From the UHGV virus genome UHGV-0123126: a stretch of DNA of 39,300 bases; one strand, 5' to 3'. The position numbers were made by a program, and so were the translations under genes. This document shows, piece by piece, positions 26,980 through 35,064 of the stretch; position 1 is the first letter of the stretch, and each line of letters opens with the position of its first letter. The notes under the pieces were generated by a model. That model did no database searches, had not been told where the DNA came from, and was given only the letters and a program-made list of their open reading frames with translations. Source of the stretch: a virus.

Positions 26980-28017
26980 ATGAAACATTTCAAACCAATA
27001 TCTTTCTTTATGTTGTCGCTATTACTTGTTTCGGGGAGTGCACATGCCTATGAAATACAAAAGCTGATCGATGCGGCAAAAGCAGGCGACGTTGAGTCAC
27101 AGAGTGCTTTAGGTATCGACTATATGAAAGGTATTCATGGTGTCGAAAAAAACTACGATGAAGCCAGAAAATGGCTTGAACTGGCGACTTCTAAGGGGAA
27201 CAAAGAAGCGTTTAATGCTCTAGGTATAATGTATGCCCTTGGGTATGGGGTTGATAAAAATTTCAAAAAGGCTGAGGAACTCTTTAAGAAAGCTGGTGAT
27301 GCAGCTGGAGGCAACTCTTATCACAATCTGGGTGTTATTTATCATAAAGGACTTGCGGGTAAGAAAGACCAAAAACTTTCCCTGAAATATCACAAACTTG
27401 CAGTAGAGGCTGGCGACCCTGAATCTGCGTCATATCTAGGACAGTTATATTATGTTGGCGCAGGCGTGCCAAAAAGCTACAAAAAGGCAATAGAGTATTA
27501 TAAAAAAGGAATCGAACTAGGCAGTGCATCTGCATTGGCGAATCTTGGCATTATGTATGAGTATGGTGAAGGGGTTAAAAAAGATTATAAAAAAGCAGCT
27601 GAGCTTTATCAGGCAGCTTGCGATAAAGAAGATAAAAATGGCTGTGATTACATTGCAGAACTAAAAGAAAGCGGTAAATACCAACCATCAGCAGCAAGAT
27701 CTAAAGCAAAATCCTCCACTCAGCGACTTATTGCTAAATCCATTGATAAAGGCGTTAACGCAACATTTACCTGGCAGGGTGATGATGCCACCTTCACCGC
27801 TAATGATGGCAAAATTGACTGCACTTTCCTAAAGGATTTTTCAGAGAAAGGAGGCAATCTGGCTACCTCGTTTGTTTGCACCGATAACGTTCAAATCATC
27901 CTGAAGCAATTCAGAGATACCAAGAATGCCTACCTCGCGGTAATGACTGACAACTTCAACACAGAAGTTAAATCATTTTCGGTCAATGTTTACGTGACTA
28001 ATACTGGTTCAAACTAG
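26980..28017 (+). CDS. Secreted Sel1-like repeat (TPR-like) protein with N-terminal signal peptide
   Basis: Signal peptide ending SGSAHA; repeated about 36-aa units with A-x-x-G-[VI]-x-Y and K-A-x-E-[LW]-[YF]-K-K-A spacing. Confidence 0.8.
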   Translation: MKHFKPISFFMLSLLLVSGSAHAYEIQKLIDAAKAGDVESQSALGIDYMKGIHGVEKNYDEARKWLELATSKGNKEAFNALGIMYALGYGVDKNFKKAEELFKKAGDAAGGNSYHNLGVIYHKGLAGKKDQKLSLKYHKLAVEAGDPESASYLGQLYYVGAGVPKSYKKAIEYYKKGIELGSASALANLGIMYEYGEGVKKDYKKAAELYQAACDKEDKNGCDYIAELKESGKYQPSAARSKAKSSTQRLIAKSIDKGVNATFTWQGDDATFTANDGKIDCTFLKDFSEKGGNLATSFVCTDNVQIILKQFRDTKNAYLAVMTDNFNTEVKSFSVNVYVTNTGSN

Positions 28018-29190
28018 TGCTGCAATGCCTTTCACCTTGCTTAAGAGTTCAAGCTGTCGTGAATAAGGTTTTGCGCAATAGTAGGCTTTGATAATCTGCC
28101 CCGGTGTCGCATCGCCGGGGTCGAGTCCTTCCTCGCCCAAACACGCAACTTTGACATTAAGGCCAATACTTGTGAGTCGCCTAGCTGCGGCCATAGTGTT
28201 GCGTATAGCTTGCTTTTCACTATCCCACATCATGATCACATTACGTAATCCACGCGCCTTGAGCGTCAGGAACGCGCCCAGCTGATCTTCTGCATCCTGA
28301 GTGGTGTTGCCAGATAGATGCATCCCGAACGTTCCTATTGGTTCCACGTAATCACGTAATGTTTCTTCGTCAAAAATAGCTCGTTTGACCCCCATAACAT
28401 CGAACGCCCCCTCACAGACAACTACCGTCTGTTTGCCGACTGCATTATGGCCGTTGTAGAGAAACTTACCTGAAGCTGGAAGCTGCACAGGAAAGAGGTA
28501 GCGACGTTCTGCTGTACCGGTAATGTCTCGTCCCTGAAATGTCTTCATTACCCCATCCAGATCGTAAACCGGTATCAGTATTCGCATATCGAATATCTGT
28601 CCTTTAACCTGATCTGTATACGGATCTACATAGGCGTGCTTGCCTTCGACGCAGTATCGTAGGTCAAAATACTTTGCCATTTCAGGCGATATGTTTCGTT
28701 CAACCAGATAGTCTGGAAGACGACCATCTATAGGAAGCTCGTAATGACGAGGGAGTGCAACTGGCCCCTCTAACTCGACTGTGCTTGCAAGCACTAGCTC
28801 TTCTTTCTTTGGTGCCCACCCCTGGGAAAGAAGGGCGTTCTGCACATATTCCTCGAACTGTCGTCGTGATTTGCCGCTGTAGTGCTTGAGGAAGACCAGC
28901 TTATTGAACTGAATCTCTTCGGGATGATCACCAGCGAAGCATTTACCGACGCCACTGGTCAGATTGAAATATACCTTCCAGTTGGAGCTGCCACATACCG
29001 GACACTCCTTGATATTCACTTCACGACCGCGAGTACTCACGCCTCCACGTCGATAAACGATACCTTCAGTATCCAACCATTGTTCAAAATCTAATTCGGT
29101 AATTAGCTCTTTCAGCTCGCTCACGATAATTCCACTTTTAACAGGCAATATTGTGACCAACCTAAATGTTGATATAACATAAAGGCTCAT
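28009..29190 (-). CDS. DNA primase (zinc-finger plus TOPRIM); start uncertain (track ORF begins at GTG 29262)
   Basis: Zinc ribbon CPVCGSSNW...KCFAG; TOPRIM-like VVVCEGAFDVMGV; ATG at 29188..29190 avoids the hairpin at 29241..29258. Confidence 0.75.
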   Translation of the reverse strand: MSLYVISTFRLVTILPVKSGIIVSELKELITELDFEQWLDTEGIVYRRGGVSTRGREVNIKECPVCGSSNWKVYFNLTSGVGKCFAGDHPEEIQFNKLVFLKHYSGKSRRQFEEYVQNALLSQGWAPKKEELVLASTVELEGPVALPRHYELPIDGRLPDYLVERNISPEMAKYFDLRYCVEGKHAYVDPYTDQVKGQIFDMRILIPVYDLDGVMKTFQGRDITGTAERRYLFPVQLPASGKFLYNGHNAVGKQTVVVCEGAFDVMGVKRAIFDEETLRDYVEPIGTFGMHLSGNTTQDAEDQLGAFLTLKARGLRNVIMMWDSEKQAIRNTMAAARRLTSIGLNVKVACLGEEGLDPGDATPGQIIKAYYCAKPYSRQLELLSKVKGIAALV

Positions 29191-29271
29191 GTGTTTTTCT
29201 TTTGTGGTTTGGCAAAAGAAAAGTTGTTTCACCAATGAATCAAGCGTGGAGGTGTTCTCCACGCTTATTTT

Positions 29272-30612
29272 TTAGGTAACGTCTAAGATTCGCTCAATGA
29301 AGCGCATTTGTTCGAGGTTTTGTTTAACGCGAATGCTGATCCCTCCCTGCTGGTTACGTGAACCAGCAAAGTAGAGACGAGCCTCTCCTTTCGCTTCTTC
29401 TTCTTCGGTTTTGTTGATCGTTATTACCAGGTCAGCAATACGTACTTTTTCGATGTTGTCGGCAGCGTGCATCATTGTGGCAACTTCTGACGCGCCACCT
29501 TCACGGTTTGTCTGCGATGCCGTGATCCCAGCAACGTTATGCTTGTCATAAAGAGCACGTAAATCGGTGTAGATACTACGAATGTTGGCGCGATCATCTC
29601 GAAGGTCATAACTGGCACGCATCAAATCTGCGTAGTCGACAACAACCATGTCAGGCACCATGCCGTTGGCTTTCATGCTGTTAAGCATACGGTCCAGATC
29701 TGCCGGTGACATACTTCCTGACGGACGCTCAACAACCCACAAACTACCAATACCCTTCGTAGCTCCCAACTCTGCCAACTTGCGATGAACTTCATCGCGC
29801 CGTTCCACCAACTTGGACATTTCCGTCTCCGACAATCTTGCATCAAAACGGTCGGATAAAATGGTGGTGTGAACCTCCAGCGAGAGATACAGAACATTGT
29901 AGCCAGCAAGTGTTGCGTTTATGGAAAACTCACCCATTGCGGTCGATTTACCGGATTTAGCGAACCCCATGAAGAGCACCATTTCGCGCTTTGCCCAGCC
30001 TTTTTGGTACAGCAACCTATCGAGAAGAGGGAGTCCAGTTGTAATACTGTTTGGTACATACTCCTCTGAAGCCTCATATTCACGCGCTTTCAATCGCTCA
30101 CTTGCGGAGGTGTAGTAGTCATAGATTCCGGTCGCTTCGTTCGATCCAATCTGCTGAACCTTGGCCATGATTGCCATCGCCCCGTGAAAGTCGCCTTTCT
30201 CTTTCAGTTCAGCAGCCTTAATCAGAGCATCATCAAACGCTACACTTTTTGCGAAGGTTGATACCTGGTCAACCATGTACGAGGTATCGGACAATTTTTC
30301 TGCAAGAATGCGCTTAAACGCAGCAACAACATCGGCGAATAGTTCCTCACGGATAGTCTTATCGCGTTTCGCACGCTTAAGCATATCCAGAATTGCAGAT
30401 GAAGAGGGCGCGCTCTTGTACATACGGTAATAGCCCGAAACCATATTAACCAATATGGCATTGGCCGCATTGGCAAATTGGCTAGGTACAACCAGATCTC
30501 CAGCACGAGTAAGAAACTCGTGATCACGACAAAAATAGGCCGTCAATCTGTTCTGAAAATCTTCATCAAACTCTTCGGACAGCCCGCGTCCTGTATGGCA
30601 AAGTTCGGTCAT
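29272..30612 (-). CDS. dnaB: Replicative DNA helicase, DnaB-like
   Basis: Walker A GFAKSGKST, RecA-fold C-terminal domain, 446 aa; directly upstream of the primase. Confidence 0.85.
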   Translation of the reverse strand: MTELCHTGRGLSEEFDEDFQNRLTAYFCRDHEFLTRAGDLVVPSQFANAANAILVNMVSGYYRMYKSAPSSSAILDMLKRAKRDKTIREELFADVVAAFKRILAEKLSDTSYMVDQVSTFAKSVAFDDALIKAAELKEKGDFHGAMAIMAKVQQIGSNEATGIYDYYTSASERLKAREYEASEEYVPNSITTGLPLLDRLLYQKGWAKREMVLFMGFAKSGKSTAMGEFSINATLAGYNVLYLSLEVHTTILSDRFDARLSETEMSKLVERRDEVHRKLAELGATKGIGSLWVVERPSGSMSPADLDRMLNSMKANGMVPDMVVVDYADLMRASYDLRDDRANIRSIYTDLRALYDKHNVAGITASQTNREGGASEVATMMHAADNIEKVRIADLVITINKTEEEEAKGEARLYFAGSRNQQGGISIRVKQNLEQMRFIERILDVT

Positions 30613-30655: not shown

Positions 30656-31396
30656 TTAATTAGATAGGGGATCAATAAACCGCCGTGCTTCTTCCAGTTC
30701 TTCTGGAAAGTGGGCGGAAATAAGGCGCTCTGGAACGATTTCCATTAGCCAGATAGCGGAGAAAATTGCGCGTATGCGCTTGCTGCGGGGGATGGTGCGT
30801 AAACGCTCCAGAATCCACTCAAAATAGCTTTCCTGAATCGGGTTGAACTGCATGTCTCCCATATGCTTAAAGCTAACGAGAGAGTCATCCAGACGGGTTG
30901 TTGCGCGTCTGGCTAATTTCTCTTCGAATATCTCAATCAGCTCTGGCTGCCATAAATGCTGTGGGCGCGGCAGCTTGTCCCACAGCCGTCGTGCAGCTGC
31001 GGAAAGAACGGTGGAGATAAAGTAGTCGTATGAGCAGCAATAGCGGTCAGCATACTGGCGTGCTTTCCATAGCGACGTTTTATTGGCAGTCGACAACTCC
31101 TGATAAGGCAGGCGTTTTAACCCGGTGGTGAACGGAGCTGTTTCAAAGTGTTCGCGACCGTGCGTCAGCATGATATTTGAGTACTGACGTTTGTATGCCT
31201 CCGTAAAAAGACAGGTGGCCATGAGAGGATGCATGTCGCGGTAATCAAACCACTTCGTCTCGAAGAGTTCAGCCTCGTCTTTACAGCGCGACAAACCAAT
31301 GTTTTCAGCGACCCACTTGTCCATAACAGCGGTATTCCACTCTGTCATGAAGTCGTACTGGTCGTTGTCGATGGTATCGAAAAAGATTTGGCTCAT
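30656..31396 (-). CDS. Hypothetical protein (about 246 aa from ATG 31394..31396; track ORF starts at GTG 31405)
   Basis: AGGTGA SD 7 nt before the ATG; conserved GGTAGGTAGTTACTTACTTATC upstream. Confidence 0.5.
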   Translation of the reverse strand: MSQIFFDTIDNDQYDFMTEWNTAVMDKWVAENIGLSRCKDEAELFETKWFDYRDMHPLMATCLFTEAYKRQYSNIMLTHGREHFETAPFTTGLKRLPYQELSTANKTSLWKARQYADRYCCSYDYFISTVLSAAARRLWDKLPRPQHLWQPELIEIFEEKLARRATTRLDDSLVSFKHMGDMQFNPIQESYFEWILERLRTIPRSKRIRAIFSAIWLMEIVPERLISAHFPEELEEARRFIDPLSN

Positions 31397-31678
31397 GTGG
31401 CTCACCTGGTAGGTAGTTACTTACTTATCACAATGAACGGATGATAGCGACTGGTGGCAGTTTTTGGAAGTGGAAACGGAAGGGAGTTGTTCTGGTGGTG
31501 TCTTTTAAAAGACCTGCTTCCGTATATATTTAATAAGTTACTTATTATTTATATATACAGAAGCAGGCATAACTTGTCGTCTTAGACGCCCAGAAGCTCT
31601 ACACTTTGAGCCTGTTAAATTGATTAAAAACTTATGTGTAAAATAGAACGCATTAGTCAGTAGCTAAGAGATGCAATA

Positions 31679-32446
31679 ATGGACGATTTATCGGTATACG
31701 CGAGATCATTGGATAAGGCTAAATACTATGTTTACTGTCTCTATGATACAGAAGACAAGATGAAAAGACCGTTTTACATAGGAAAAGGCAAATCGACTCG
31801 TTGTCTCGATCACATCAAGTATCCCGATGACTCTCCCAAATCCATGCGGATCAAAGAACTTTTGGCTAATAAAAAATTAGGCATAGATATTCTTCGTCAT
31901 GGTATGGATGAAACCACAGCCAAACTTGTTGAGGCGACATGCATCGACCTTATGGGGGTCGGAGAGCTTACGAATAAGGTACGAGGAAGTGGTTCCATGA
32001 TGGGCAGAATATCACTGGACGCCTACCATCACTTAGTGCTGCAAGAGGAAACTGAAATTGCTCCTGAGCACGCCGGTCTTGCCTTCCTGCTAAACAGCAC
32101 CTACAAGTCAGGAATGTCCGCTCTGGCATTATATGAAGCTACGCGTGGCGTATGGGCAAAGGTTCCAAGAGACGAGAATCTCAAATATGCCTACGCTACA
32201 TATGGTGGGCTAATAATGGAAGTTTATCAGATTGAATGCTGGGTCAAAGCCGGTTCTCAGCAGTACTTTACAAGGGATATAGCTCTTGGCCCCGACACAA
32301 AACGTTATGAATTTGTTGGCAGAATAGCCGATGAGCATATTAGAAAACTGTATGTAGGCAAATTAATCAAGAAGCCACCAAGCTACGGTAGCCCTTTTGT
32401 GAAGGTTGGGGTGGTTAGGACTGAACATAGTGTTAGCGCGGCATAA
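31679..32446 (+). CDS. GIY-YIG nuclease-domain protein with uncharacterised C-terminal domain
   Basis: N-terminal YYVYCLYD...PFYIGKGKSTR fits GIY-YIG; isolated plus-strand gene with strong terminator. Confidence 0.7.
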   Translation: MDDLSVYARSLDKAKYYVYCLYDTEDKMKRPFYIGKGKSTRCLDHIKYPDDSPKSMRIKELLANKKLGIDILRHGMDETTAKLVEATCIDLMGVGELTNKVRGSGSMMGRISLDAYHHLVLQEETEIAPEHAGLAFLLNSTYKSGMSALALYEATRGVWAKVPRDENLKYAYATYGGLIMEVYQIECWVKAGSQQYFTRDIALGPDTKRYEFVGRIADEHIRKLYVGKLIKKPPSYGSPFVKVGVVRTEHSVSAA

Positions 32447-32460
32447 AGCTGACACTGTAG

Positions 32461-32500
32461 TCATGCATTGGCGCAATGTACGCGCCAATGCATGATTTTT
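32461..32500. terminator. Strong rho-independent terminator: 14-bp stem TCATGCATTGGCGC / GCGCCAATGCATGA, 7-nt loop, TTTTT
   Basis: Perfect stem, T-run on plus strand after the GIY-YIG gene; also abuts the parG-like 3' end. Confidence 0.7.
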
Positions 32501-32858
32501 AACCTTTCTTCATCAACTCTCGTTTGATTTCATCGGTACGCATCGTGACATCGGCAGCGGTGATCGCCTCATTCAATTTCACGATGTCCTCGATTTCCTG
32601 CGGTGACTTCTCTGCCAGATGGAAAATGGCTGCTCGAATCACGTCAGAACGAGTGAACTTCTCGAAGCGAGGGATGAACTTCATCATCTCCAGCAGTTCG
32701 AAGTATTCGTCCTCCAGTGACATTGTGCGGCTTTTAATTTTCTCTTTGCCACGAGTCGGGCGTCCCTGTGGTCTGACTGGTTGGCGCAAAGGAGTTGTGT
32801 TCTTAGCCGGTGCATCAGGCTCTTTGCGCTTTGCTAGGTCACCCATTTTCATGGACAT
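32499..32858 (-). CDS. Small ParG-like partition/centromere-binding protein (basic N-terminal tail, possible ribbon-helix-helix)
   Basis: 119 aa, Lys/Arg/Pro-rich N-terminus then structured C-terminus; start overlaps parA stop (TAATG). Confidence 0.55.
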   Translation of the reverse strand: MSMKMGDLAKRKEPDAPAKNTTPLRQPVRPQGRPTRGKEKIKSRTMSLEDEYFELLEMMKFIPRFEKFTRSDVIRAAIFHLAEKSPQEIEDIVKLNEAITAADVTMRTDEIKRELMKKG

Positions 32859-33526
32859 TATTCTTCTTCCTCCAGACTCAACAGATAATCTACAAATTCT
32901 TCAAACTCGGCTTCCGCCTTTTTGTCGCGCTCGCTACCGGTCATTTCAAAGATAGAACGACCAGACTCTTCCGCATCATCATAGACGTTGCGGTTATATA
33001 GATTGACTGGCGCAGACTCGATGCCGAACGTCTCGACAATCTCTTTAGCCGCCAGAATGCGAGACACTTGTGATGGCAAAGCCGGGCACTGGTTCATGAC
33101 CGCGCGGACCTTCACTTTATCGTTTACATTGCGAACATTGTCGATAATAGGATCGATGTCACGTAAAGATTTCAAATCACGACGCTTAGGACGCAGCGGG
33201 ATAATGATAACGTCAGCCATCAGCATCGCTTGTCGCTGAATTTCGGAGTCGAAGCCACCAGCATCTACCACTACAAACTCAGCTCTACCCTGAAGCGATT
33301 TTAGGTGCTTAATGATGTCATCCTGAACGTATGCAAAAGGAATCAGCTCAAGGTCTTCGTTCTGTCGACGGTCTTCACACCAGCTCGTTGTCGTGCGCTG
33401 AATATCTATATCGGTAATATAAACCTTCTTCTTCTTTTTGACTTTCAGGCAAACGGCAATTTGCTGGGCAACGGTGGATTTGCCAGGCCCGCCCTTTGTG
33501 CCGCCAACCACAAAGATCTTGGTCAT
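32858..33526 (-). CDS. parA: ParA/Soj-family partition ATPase (deviant Walker A)
   Basis: VVGGTKGGPGKST deviant Walker A near N-terminus; 222 aa; followed by small basic protein. Confidence 0.85.
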   Translation of the reverse strand: MTKIFVVGGTKGGPGKSTVAQQIAVCLKVKKKKKVYITDIDIQRTTTSWCEDRRQNEDLELIPFAYVQDDIIKHLKSLQGRAEFVVVDAGGFDSEIQRQAMLMADVIIIPLRPKRRDLKSLRDIDPIIDNVRNVNDKVKVRAVMNQCPALPSQVSRILAAKEIVETFGIESAPVNLYNRNVYDDAEESGRSIFEMTGSERDKKAEAEFEEFVDYLLSLEEEE

Positions 33527-33844
33527 TGGAGAGTTCCCTTTGCGTATATAATTATCGTCTGAAACAACTTGTTTTCTTATATGTGATATAGCCTAAATGC
33601 CTACGGCTGCGGTGTAAAGGTTAAATGGTAGGTTGTGATTAACAATTGGCAATCATAGCTTGTATTTGTCTGTTGAAAAAAGTAACAATGACCTCTATAT
33701 TACAAGTACGGTGATATGCCGTACACAATTTGATAATGCACACGTAATGGGCTATAGCCTTTTAAAGTAATTTTTGAGTCGAAAACTCAGTTTGAACAGA
33801 GGAGATTGATGGCCTTCCTACATCACGGCCATCAGGAGGAATAC

Positions 33845-34114
33845 ATGTCAGCACTAAAAAAGCAGCGCATCGATTTGAGATTAACCGATGACGATAAAAG
33901 CATCATCGAGGAAGCTGCCGCAATGTCTAACCAGAGCATTACTCAGTTTATGGTTAGCAGTGCATCTGAACGTGCCGTGAAAGTTATAGAGCAACACCGT
34001 AGACTAGTTCTGAATGAAGAATCCTGGAATCTGGTTATGGACGCTATAAGCAATCCTCCGGCACCGAACGACAAGCTGAAACGAGCTGCTGATCGTCTGA
34101 AAAGCATGGAGTAG
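33845..34114 (+). CDS. TacA-type (DUF1778-like) antitoxin of a GNAT toxin-antitoxin pair
   Basis: 89 aa from ATG 33845 with AGGAGGA SD; MSALKKQRIDLRLTDDDKSIIEEAA...; 7 nt before the GNAT toxin gene. Confidence 0.8.
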   Translation: MSALKKQRIDLRLTDDDKSIIEEAAAMSNQSITQFMVSSASERAVKVIEQHRRLVLNEESWNLVMDAISNPPAPNDKLKRAADRLKSME

Positions 34115-34121
34115 TTTACTC

Positions 34122-34643
34122 GTGAGCAATACAACGATAGAGATTTTCTCTGGAGAGAAAGATTATGATCTAAACGGTTTTGATTGCGGCGAAGAGTCAC
34201 TAAACGCCTTTTTAGCCAACCACTTAAAAAGGCAGCATGAGGGAAAAATTCTTCGTGCTTATGTGCTTTGCACTCAAGAAGAAAGGCCAAAAGTGTTAGG
34301 ATATTACACTTTGTCAGGTAGTTGTTTTGAAAAGGAGTCCTTACCTTCAAGAAGCAAACAAAAGAAGGTTCCTTATCGGAATGTTCCAAGTGTTACTTTG
34401 GGTAGGCTGGCTTTGGACAAGTCCCTTCAAGGTCAAGGATTTGGCTCAATGCTTGTAACACATGCAATGCGCGTTGTGTACAATGCATCTCTTGCTGTAG
34501 GCATTCATGGACTTTTCGTTGAGGCGTTAAATGACAAAGCCAAGGCGTTTTATAAAAGTTTAGGCTTTATCCAGCTGGTTGGTAACAACGAGCGTTCTTT
34601 GTTCTATCCTACAAAATCTATCGAAAAATTGTTCGAAGAATAA
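34122..34643 (+). CDS. GNAT-family acetyltransferase toxin (TacT/AtaT/KacT-like)
   Basis: 173 aa, GTG start; FDCGEESLNAFL, ILRAYVLC, YYTLSGSCF, QGQGFGSMLV match AtaT-type toxins as recalled from memory. Confidence 0.85.
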   Translation: MSNTTIEIFSGEKDYDLNGFDCGEESLNAFLANHLKRQHEGKILRAYVLCTQEERPKVLGYYTLSGSCFEKESLPSRSKQKKVPYRNVPSVTLGRLALDKSLQGQGFGSMLVTHAMRVVYNASLAVGIHGLFVEALNDKAKAFYKSLGFIQLVGNNERSLFYPTKSIEKLFEE

Positions 34644-34675
34644 TGTGTTCCCCTCATTTGAGGGGAACTTCGACA

Positions 34676-34891
34676 TCACCAACCACAAACCCTCTCTCCC
34701 ATCGTATTGTGAAAAAGGATTTGGCGTTCGGTTTCTTCAGTCATTACATCATTATTGCTGATATAGATAGGCTCAGCCCCATCGCAGAACAACACGCTGG
34801 CTGTTTGTGGTTTAATGACGCACCCACTTATCATACAACTCACGATGAACGGCAGAAGCATCTTTCTGACGTATTTTACTGCTCGTCTCAT
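34676..34891 (-). CDS. Putative o-spanin (outer-membrane lipoprotein, Rz1-like), overlapping the i-spanin
   Basis: Lipobox ISGC after hydrophobic segment; embedded in an alternate frame overlapping the 3' end of 34812..35063. Confidence 0.5.
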   Translation of the reverse strand: MRRAVKYVRKMLLPFIVSCMISGCVIKPQTASVLFCDGAEPIYISNNDVMTEETERQILFHNTMGERVCGW

Positions 34892-35063
34892 TCACCACTT
34901 TCACTGTGTTTTGAAGTCGTTTTCTGTCTTCCTGTTTTGCCTTCTCTTCCATTGCTCGTCGCGCCGCATTCCCGCCCATCGTGTAAGCGCCGACAAGAAC
35001 GAAAAGAACGGCAGCCAGCGTAATCAAAGCAACTTTTAGCTTTGTCATCAGGCTGCCTAGCAT
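34812..35063 (-). CDS. Putative i-spanin (Rz-like: N-terminal TM helix plus charged coiled-coil)
   Basis: 83 aa; TM segment VALITLAAVLFVLVGAY then Lys/Glu/Arg-rich region. Confidence 0.5.
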   Translation of the reverse strand: MLGSLMTKLKVALITLAAVLFVLVGAYTMGGNAARRAMEEKAKQEDRKRLQNTVKVVNETSSKIRQKDASAVHRELYDKWVRH

Positions 35064-35064
35064 A

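Follow-up and report, generated by a model that had tools for sequence, protein, structure and literature searches.

The virus genome UHGV-0123126 carries, in the 39,300-nucleotide stretch analysed here (hereafter the window), a plus-strand gene at 31679-32446, opening with ATG, that very likely encodes a modification-dependent defence nuclease of the CMoRE family. Assignment of its 255-amino acid (aa) product to the PD-T4-3/CMoRE family is well supported, both by sequence and by fold, and the gene lies beside the par operon, in a stretch that is a cargo-exchange slot of SSU5-like phage-plasmids. The window is 99.4-99.9% identical to SSU5-like phage-plasmids of Escherichia coli, among them phage CMS-2020a, PhiR41_1 and many plasmids of about 110 kb. 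The gene is a new, uncharacterised member of a known family and not the first report of PD-T4-3 on such elements; PD-T4-3 already figures among the systems of SSU5-group phage-plasmids from E. coli and Shigella in a DefenseFinder-based survey (preprint 10.1101/2025.09.12.675607).

A native E. coli copy of PD-T4-3 is active. The system was first found by Vassallo et al. 2022 and is the same as CMoRE, whose structures were published in January 2026 (Liu et al. Nat Commun 2026, PMC12923530); CMoRE sources are E. coli O157:H7, APEC O1 and ECOR68, and the structures are PDB 9U75, 9U7U, 9U7Z and 9U8D. CMoRE is a single-component type IV restriction endonuclease, in which the N-terminal GIY-YIG domain cuts and the C-terminal domain binds DNA containing 5-hydroxymethylcytosine (5hmC) or glucosyl-5hmC (ghmC); it degrades only 5hmC/ghmC DNA, not DNA with cytosine or 5-methylcytosine (5mC). 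The enzyme forms a tetramer, cuts at CN11/N9G to leave 2-nt 3′ overhangs, carries a “GIYxY-YIG” motif with a third tyrosine, and protects E. coli about 10^5-fold against T2, T4 and T6 by a direct, non-abortive mechanism. When the four acidic residues of the lid loop are mutated (4A), the O157:H7 enzyme becomes toxic and active on unmodified DNA; the describers report this acidic loop in “most” CMoRE members, and the only contact with 5hmC described for the crystal is Y127's main-chain oxygen (PMC12923530). PD-T4-3Capno from Capnocytophaga, which has 48% identity to PD-T4-3, is likewise a modification-dependent nuclease that defends E. coli, and its substrates include both T4 DNA and Mu DNA, the latter containing carbamoylmethyl-adenine (Rodriguez-Rodriguez et al. 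Cell Host Microbe 2025, PMC12366544).

A first-pass annotation of this DNA had recognised a GIY-YIG domain at the N-terminus of the protein from the motifs YYVYCLYD ... PFYIGKGKSTR. This assignment was borne out: Pfam LEM-3_GIY-YIG (PF22945) matches aa 32-104 only (E 5.5e-7; 30.1 bits, cut-off 27), and the full set of catalytic residues is present in a domain that spans aa 16-105 (31724-31993, plus strand; Y17-V-Y19 ... Y33-I-G, R41, H45, E85, N99). Family-level databases were less informative, the protein having no match in NCBIfam, a PHROGs match of unknown function (phrog_5356) and the RefSeq name “LEM-3-like GIY-YIG domain-containing protein”. HMM and structure searches on both domains, on the other hand, recovered the PADLOC PD-T4-3 model (PDLC04031; E 1.3e-23, 81.9 bits, aa 11-231 against positions 11-238 of the 256 in the profile) and the CMoRE crystal structures; in the PDB, searched by sequence, aa 12-230 align with the two proteins of entries 9U7U/9U7Z and 9U75/9U8D (E 2e-15). 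The closest non-CMoRE fold is the UvrC GIY-YIG domain. A 100%-identical fragment from Shigella sonnei is present in the protein database (P0040).

Relatives of the protein were collected (120 sequences), and 117 of them were aligned with the window protein and two CMoRE sequences, while a separate alignment of 50 sequences served for modelling; all 50 also match the PD-T4-3 model, with a best E of 1.2e-30. Residues Y17, Y19, Y33, R41, H45, E85 and N99 align to CMoRE Y17, Y19, Y31, R39, H43, E93 and N105, and all seven are invariant across the clade, so that the catalytic site is intact. The first-pass annotation had described the remainder of the protein as a C-terminal domain of roughly 160 aa matching nothing recognisable. 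A C-terminal domain is indeed present, but it measures about 135-145 aa and it is the CMoRE/PD-T4-3 modification-sensing domain: the homologous segment covers aa 110-245 (32006-32413, plus strand) and includes a conserved tail, SYGSPFVKVG, which is specific to the clade. About a dozen positions of this domain are common to CMoRE, namely H131, N139, K143, R156, W159, W188, R209, F212, G214, Y225, G227 and K228; Pfam run on aa 111-255 alone gave nothing, even at E up to 10. The sensor domain also bears a PUA-like resemblance.

The coding sequence is under purifying selection. Against the chromosomal homologues of Salmonella, Providencia and Shewanella, non-synonymous divergence (pN) is 0.15-0.30 and synonymous divergence (pS), which is saturated, is 0.79-0.87, and plasmid alleles of the gene differ by 3-5 synonymous versus 1 non-synonymous change. 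The organisation is that of a single component: the cassette (31568-32500) holds one gene, and the chromosomal homologues have no conserved neighbour. The adjacent cognate methyltransferase by which type II GIY-YIG restriction-modification systems of the Eco29kI and Hpy188I type are recognised is missing.

The par-adjacent location provides a second line of evidence. Alignment with phage Cyrano places the borders of the cassette at about 31568 and about 32498, within a slot that extends over 31513-32500 of the window. On the left the slot is bordered by a nested palindrome of 55 nt that belongs to the backbone (31513-31567, minus strand), composed of outer arms of 17 nt, 94% complementary, and of an inner AT-rich palindrome; its minus-strand RNA has a folding energy of -30.2 kcal/mol (z -7.6), and UCUUUU comes after it. 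Its arms are conserved in Cyrano, SSU5 and CMS-2020a SCU-175, its centre is variable, and divergence between the elements starts immediately to its right. The palindrome is probably the Rho-independent terminator of the minus-strand parA/parG operon, and it could also represent a recombination boundary of the slot. The right border coincides with the stop codon of a parG-like ORF (open reading frame). The slot is inside the tail of the par transcription unit, and in the window it contains an inverted, self-contained cassette with its own terminator.

Comparison of synteny in relatives revealed that the GIY-YIG gene is either present or replaced by other cassettes. In Cyrano the slot is filled by a DUF2971 protein, the PADLOC candidate PDC-S31; SSU5 and Klebsiella pJN2-26 have DUF2971/PDC-S31 together with two more genes, and CMS-2020a SCU-175 has a 567-aa KAP-family P-loop NTPase, the candidate PDC-S49. 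Three further cassettes are of no recognisable family and encode, respectively, a 352-aa protein, a 225-aa protein, and a pair of 140 and 250 aa (accessions WP_001404393.1; WP_072652150.1; WP_021520119.1 plus WP_319382121.1). PADLOC, Pfam and PDB sequence searches with them yielded two matches only, both uninformative: a designed beta-trefoil lectin, weakly similar to the 352-aa protein (E 2e-4), and PDC-M02B, at a marginal E of 0.004. By their location, these cassettes are candidate new defence genes. Including the PD-T4-3-like gene, at least seven alternative fillings were observed; besides the window, slot coordinates were recorded for L001 (2470-3294), L003 (3085-4997), L013 (1178-2881), L015 (2387-3445), L016 (2472-3149) and L017 (2278-3445).

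With the flanks alone as query, 264 of 5426 complete E. coli genomes proved to contain the backbone, in every case on plasmids. Empty sites were sought in a 60-record spread of these 264 genomes, through two-piece matches spanning both flanks, and none was found: the slots measured about 820 to 2030 bp, and a cassette of some kind was present in every one that was examined or annotated. A literature search, which was not exhaustive, retrieved no description of a par-adjacent slot in SSU5-like elements.

The GIY-YIG cassette itself occurs in 107 of the 5426 complete genomes (about 2%), corresponding to about 41% of the slot-bearing backbones, and in 136 PLSDB plasmids; in E. coli, none of the 111 gene places is chromosomal, all being on plasmids. 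Comparison with pToe3-1 indicates mobility: the cassette is 98-99% identical to that of the window, while helicase, phrog_2500 and parA are 80-84% identical and the parG-like ORF 91%. The cassette being far more identical than the backbone, it must have moved recently between diverged backbones. The 5′ part (31568-31678, plus strand), untranslated and containing the putative promoter region, moves together with the gene, as it is 98.2% identical in pToe3-1, where the flanking backbone genes reach only 80-84%. In a 141-kb conjugative IncF plasmid (L004, NZ_CP062831.1, 13508-26440), backbone fragments with the GIY-YIG cassette and the parG-like gene are found between IS3, IS2 and IS30, and a 52-kb IncFIB plasmid (L006, CP057440.1) has the cassette without most of the phage genes; the presence of the cassette on IncF plasmid remnants means that the defence gene outlives the phage and can spread by conjugation.

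Outside these elements, chromosomal homologues have 73-75% identity (Salmonella, Providencia) or 55% (Shewanella) and are located alone among housekeeping genes: guaA adjoins the gene in Salmonella, mutS is nearby in Providencia and metH adjoins it in Shewanella, with no partner gene. Such stand-alone homologues fit a one-gene system. More distant homologues, with about 25-30% identity, are encoded by virulent jumbo phages that infect Serratia and Pectobacterium (Moabite, 2050HW, BUCT660, vB_ParM-25 and others; examples are NC_048792.1 6439-7125, NC_048668.1 214767-215453 and ON287375.1 62771-63388). Those of Serratia and Pectobacterium phages cover 85-88% of the protein, including both domains, while in Klebsiella phage N1M2 the match is limited to aa 10-191; their annotations vary between “homing nuclease” and hypothetical. 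These proteins show that the family also serves phages themselves; presumably directed at competitors whose DNA is modified, they may be weapons of the CMoRE type and not homing enzymes.

Of the functions suggested in the first-pass annotation, the defence effector is the one that gained from these data, through the full-length homology to an experimentally validated defence family and through the cargo-slot context. By analogy with CMoRE, the nuclease would be made in cells carrying the phage-plasmid, and its C-terminal domain would bind hypermodified bases in the genome of a phage that enters the cell, most probably the 5hmC/ghmC of T-even phages; on balance, a substrate restricted specifically to 5hmC/ghmC is favoured. 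The GIY-YIG domain would then cut both strands at a fixed distance, the genome of a T-even-type phage would be destroyed early in infection, and the cell would survive. The DNA of the host and of the phage-plasmid, containing only cytosine, 5mC and 6-methyladenine, is expected not to be bound and hence to be spared. The phage-plasmid would profit from the survival of its host under attack by lytic phages.

Several features weigh against such a direct transfer of the CMoRE properties. BLASTP identity is 32% for the CMoRE structures and only about 32% for any characterised member. In addition, the alpha2-alpha3 loop region (aa 46-57, IKYPDDSPKSMR; 31814-31849, plus strand), which is the counterpart of the acidic autoinhibitory loop, is shortened by 5 residues with respect to 9U75/9U7U: it reads PDDSPKS, with D50-D51, against AADDDDLLS in CMoRE, where 9U75/9U7U have DDDD/DDDE. 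The segment matching the Y127 contact is variable in the clade and aligns differently in two alignments, so conservation of the 5hmC site cannot be judged from it; the activity of PD-T4-3Capno on Mu DNA indicates that the range of the family can be broader; and a sigma-70 promoter scan over 31300-32700 found no consensus promoter. For expression, a weak candidate promoter was read by eye from the sequence, consisting of TTAAAT (31615-31620), an 18-nt spacer and TAAAAT (31639-31644), with a putative Shine-Dalgarno-like AAGAGA at 31666-31671. As for the loop, its short length is common to 114 of the 117 clade members, which have 1-5 scattered acidic residues, and the wording of the describers, “most”, implies that the acidic loop is not a strict requirement for membership.

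These same differences can be read as the mark of a short-loop clade that belongs to the family but recognises a different or broader modification, for instance arabinosyl-hmC, Mu-type modified adenine or another hypermodified base, or is regulated differently, without the four-acid safety catch. Besides the loop, the variable contact segment and the plasticity of PD-T4-3Capno, this explanation draws on a conserved SGMS insertion at aa 144-147, a 6-aa deletion near aa 204 and the extra C-terminal tail, all of which distinguish the clade from CMoRE; the window protein further has a 4-aa deletion before the RHG motif, and at the interface it keeps V92 as V84 but has C88 in place of the dimer-interface L96. 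Many C-terminal residues are nevertheless common to the window protein and CMoRE, every family member tested so far restricts T-even phages, and for E. coli the obvious threat comes from T-even phages; the clade variant is a less probable, although serious, alternative. Similarly tentative, and rather doubtful as a whole, is the wider proposal that combines a short-loop clade of different specificity or self-protection with a par slot acting as an undescribed exchange point for defence, stocked with new defence genes.

The other explanations depart from the CMoRE family in function. A free-standing GIY-YIG homing endonuclease of the Seg/I-TevI type, which was one of the readings in the first-pass annotation, would cut a specific site in relatives that lack the cassette, and would spread through recombinational repair; yet the cassette-free sites it requires did not appear among the 60 records, where unrelated cassettes occupy the same place, no NUMOD, zinc-finger or helix-turn-helix module was detected by Pfam either in the whole protein or in aa 111-255, which correspond to the CMoRE sensor, and the close homologues stand alone among chromosomal housekeeping genes in several genera. 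As the characterised relatives are, moreover, modification-dependent and not sequence-specific, homing is very unlikely, and that reading was abandoned. Hardly more probable is a nuclease for anti-defence or for competition between elements, which would degrade host or competitor DNA during the lytic cycle of the phage-plasmid. The gene is virus-borne, and full-length homologues exist in virulent jumbo phages, where a role in protecting the host is less obvious; but the protein has no match to a known anti-defence family, its neighbours form a plasmid-maintenance and not a lytic module, and the cassette is kept also on non-phage IncF plasmid remnants and on chromosomes. Competing against phages with modified DNA would in any case be, mechanistically, the same activity as defence, and nothing further emerged in support of the anti-defence effector that the first-pass annotation had envisaged. 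The least probable of all is a nuclease for DNA repair or for particular DNA structures, similar to UvrC, SLX1 or LEM-3/ANKLE1. It is the function implied by the RefSeq name, and it can appeal to the above-threshold Pfam LEM-3_GIY-YIG score and to UvrC as the closest fold outside CMoRE; that match is limited to the catalytic core, however, the full-length architecture is that of CMoRE, and the accessory domains (ankyrin/LEM, the C-terminal half of UvrC, the SLX1 RING) were not detected by Pfam, so this candidate was rejected. A modification-dependent defence nuclease of the CMoRE family is accordingly the function that we retain for the gene.

The cassette ends with an intrinsic-terminator-like hairpin (32461-32500, plus strand), which the first-pass annotation had reported as a perfect 14-bp-stem terminator; both the sequence and its folding agree with that description. 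The left arm at 32461-32474 (TCATGCATTGGCGC) pairs without any mismatch with the right arm at 32482-32495, the loop is of 7 nt, and TTTTT follows at 32496-32500. Folding of the hairpin RNA gives -27.3 kcal/mol (z = -5.7), a value equalled by none of 200 shuffled sequences. A simple terminator scan over 31300-32700 did not flag it, a likely reason being that the folded stem takes in two additional pairs that involve the T run. Homology with Cyrano restarts only at about 32497-32500, hence the hairpin is part of the cassette; the parG-like ORF is convergent with the gene, and its stop codon is overlapped by the T run of the hairpin. A second allele, found in pToe3-1 and pYUXYEH3934-1, has T-A in place of a C-G pair of the stem, with PhiR41_1 as a G-U intermediate; the pairing is kept through this compensatory change, which supports maintenance of the structure by selection. 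The 7-nt loop is exactly inverted between the alleles, AATGTAC versus GTACATT (window 32461-32495; L018 3133-3225; L005 6863-6955), a flip of the hairpin tip that intrastrand template switching at a palindrome would be expected to produce.

The gene is isolated on the plus strand between replication and partition modules, as the first-pass annotation had stated, and both its neighbours are on the minus strand. To the left are, all on the minus strand, a primase (28009-29262), a DnaB-like helicase (29272-30612) and the left neighbour phrog_2500, a conserved gene of unknown function (30656-31405). To the right, the parG-like ORF encodes 119 aa (32499-32858, minus strand; phrog_5111, unknown function) and is followed by the ParA ATPase (32858-33526, minus strand), to which it is translationally coupled. 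This ORF is a backbone gene, kept beside ParA in every relative examined; it has no Pfam match, and the name parG reflects position only. Its counterpart in Cyrano (L001 3291-3650) is annotated as “RelE/ParE putative toxin”; the label is probably wrong, the ORF being located where a ParG-type centromere-binding protein is expected and having no Pfam match.

A second variable slot is present between parA and the lysis cassette (33527-35064 of the window). In the window it contains a TacA/TacT-type pair (DUF1778 + GNAT), composed of a TacA-like protein (33806-34114) and a GNAT toxin (34122-34643), and Cyrano has the same arrangement. In PhiR41_1, SSU5 and pJN2-26 the corresponding place is taken by unrelated unknown genes (L002 4594-5769; L003 6178-7334; L014 6346-6903), and those of PhiR41_1 and SSU5 gave no Pfam or PADLOC match.

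The assignment replaces a “hypothetical” or “LEM-3-like GIY-YIG” label with a testable function, the restriction of phages with hypermodified DNA. This matters for phage therapy, in which T4-like phages are common candidates; carriage of a widespread phage-plasmid could render a host resistant to such phages. With its shortened loop, the clade provides a natural experiment on the way in which CMoRE-type enzymes leave the DNA of their host uncut. The par-adjacent slot, whose cassettes are exchanged between diverged backbones, is a convenient site for the search for new defence genes. The more interesting by-products of the analysis are this slot, together with the cassettes in it that were not recognised, and the sensor domain's PUA-like resemblance.

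Among known systems, the window protein is most similar to CMoRE, with which it shares the two-domain architecture, the length (255 aa, compared with 256 positions of the PADLOC profile and 262 residues of the crystallised chains), the GIYxY-YIG motif with the third tyrosine, the catalytic R/H/E/N, the homologous C-terminal sensor and the single-gene organisation; it differs from CMoRE also in being carried on a phage-plasmid. PD-T4-3Capno, compared here by its published description only, is of the same family with a range that includes Mu DNA. The combination of a nuclease with a PUA-like reader recalls other type IV enzymes, such as VcaM4I (HNH + PUA-superfamily), McrB with its N-terminal YTH-like domain, and the EVE/ASCH/YTH fusions. 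Unlike the homing endonucleases SegA-G of T4 and I-TevI, the window protein has no sequence-specific DNA-binding domain, and its slot is shared with unrelated cassettes. The slot itself resembles the hotspots of P2 and P4 and the accessory loci of P1 phage-plasmids, having a fixed position in the backbone, conserved borders, and interchangeable, unrelated cassettes of a single or a few genes, some of which are known or candidate defence systems; as in those loci, the cassette is far more conserved than its flanks. It differs from them in that it is found in SSU5-like phage-plasmids, between the stop codon of the par operon and the par terminator.

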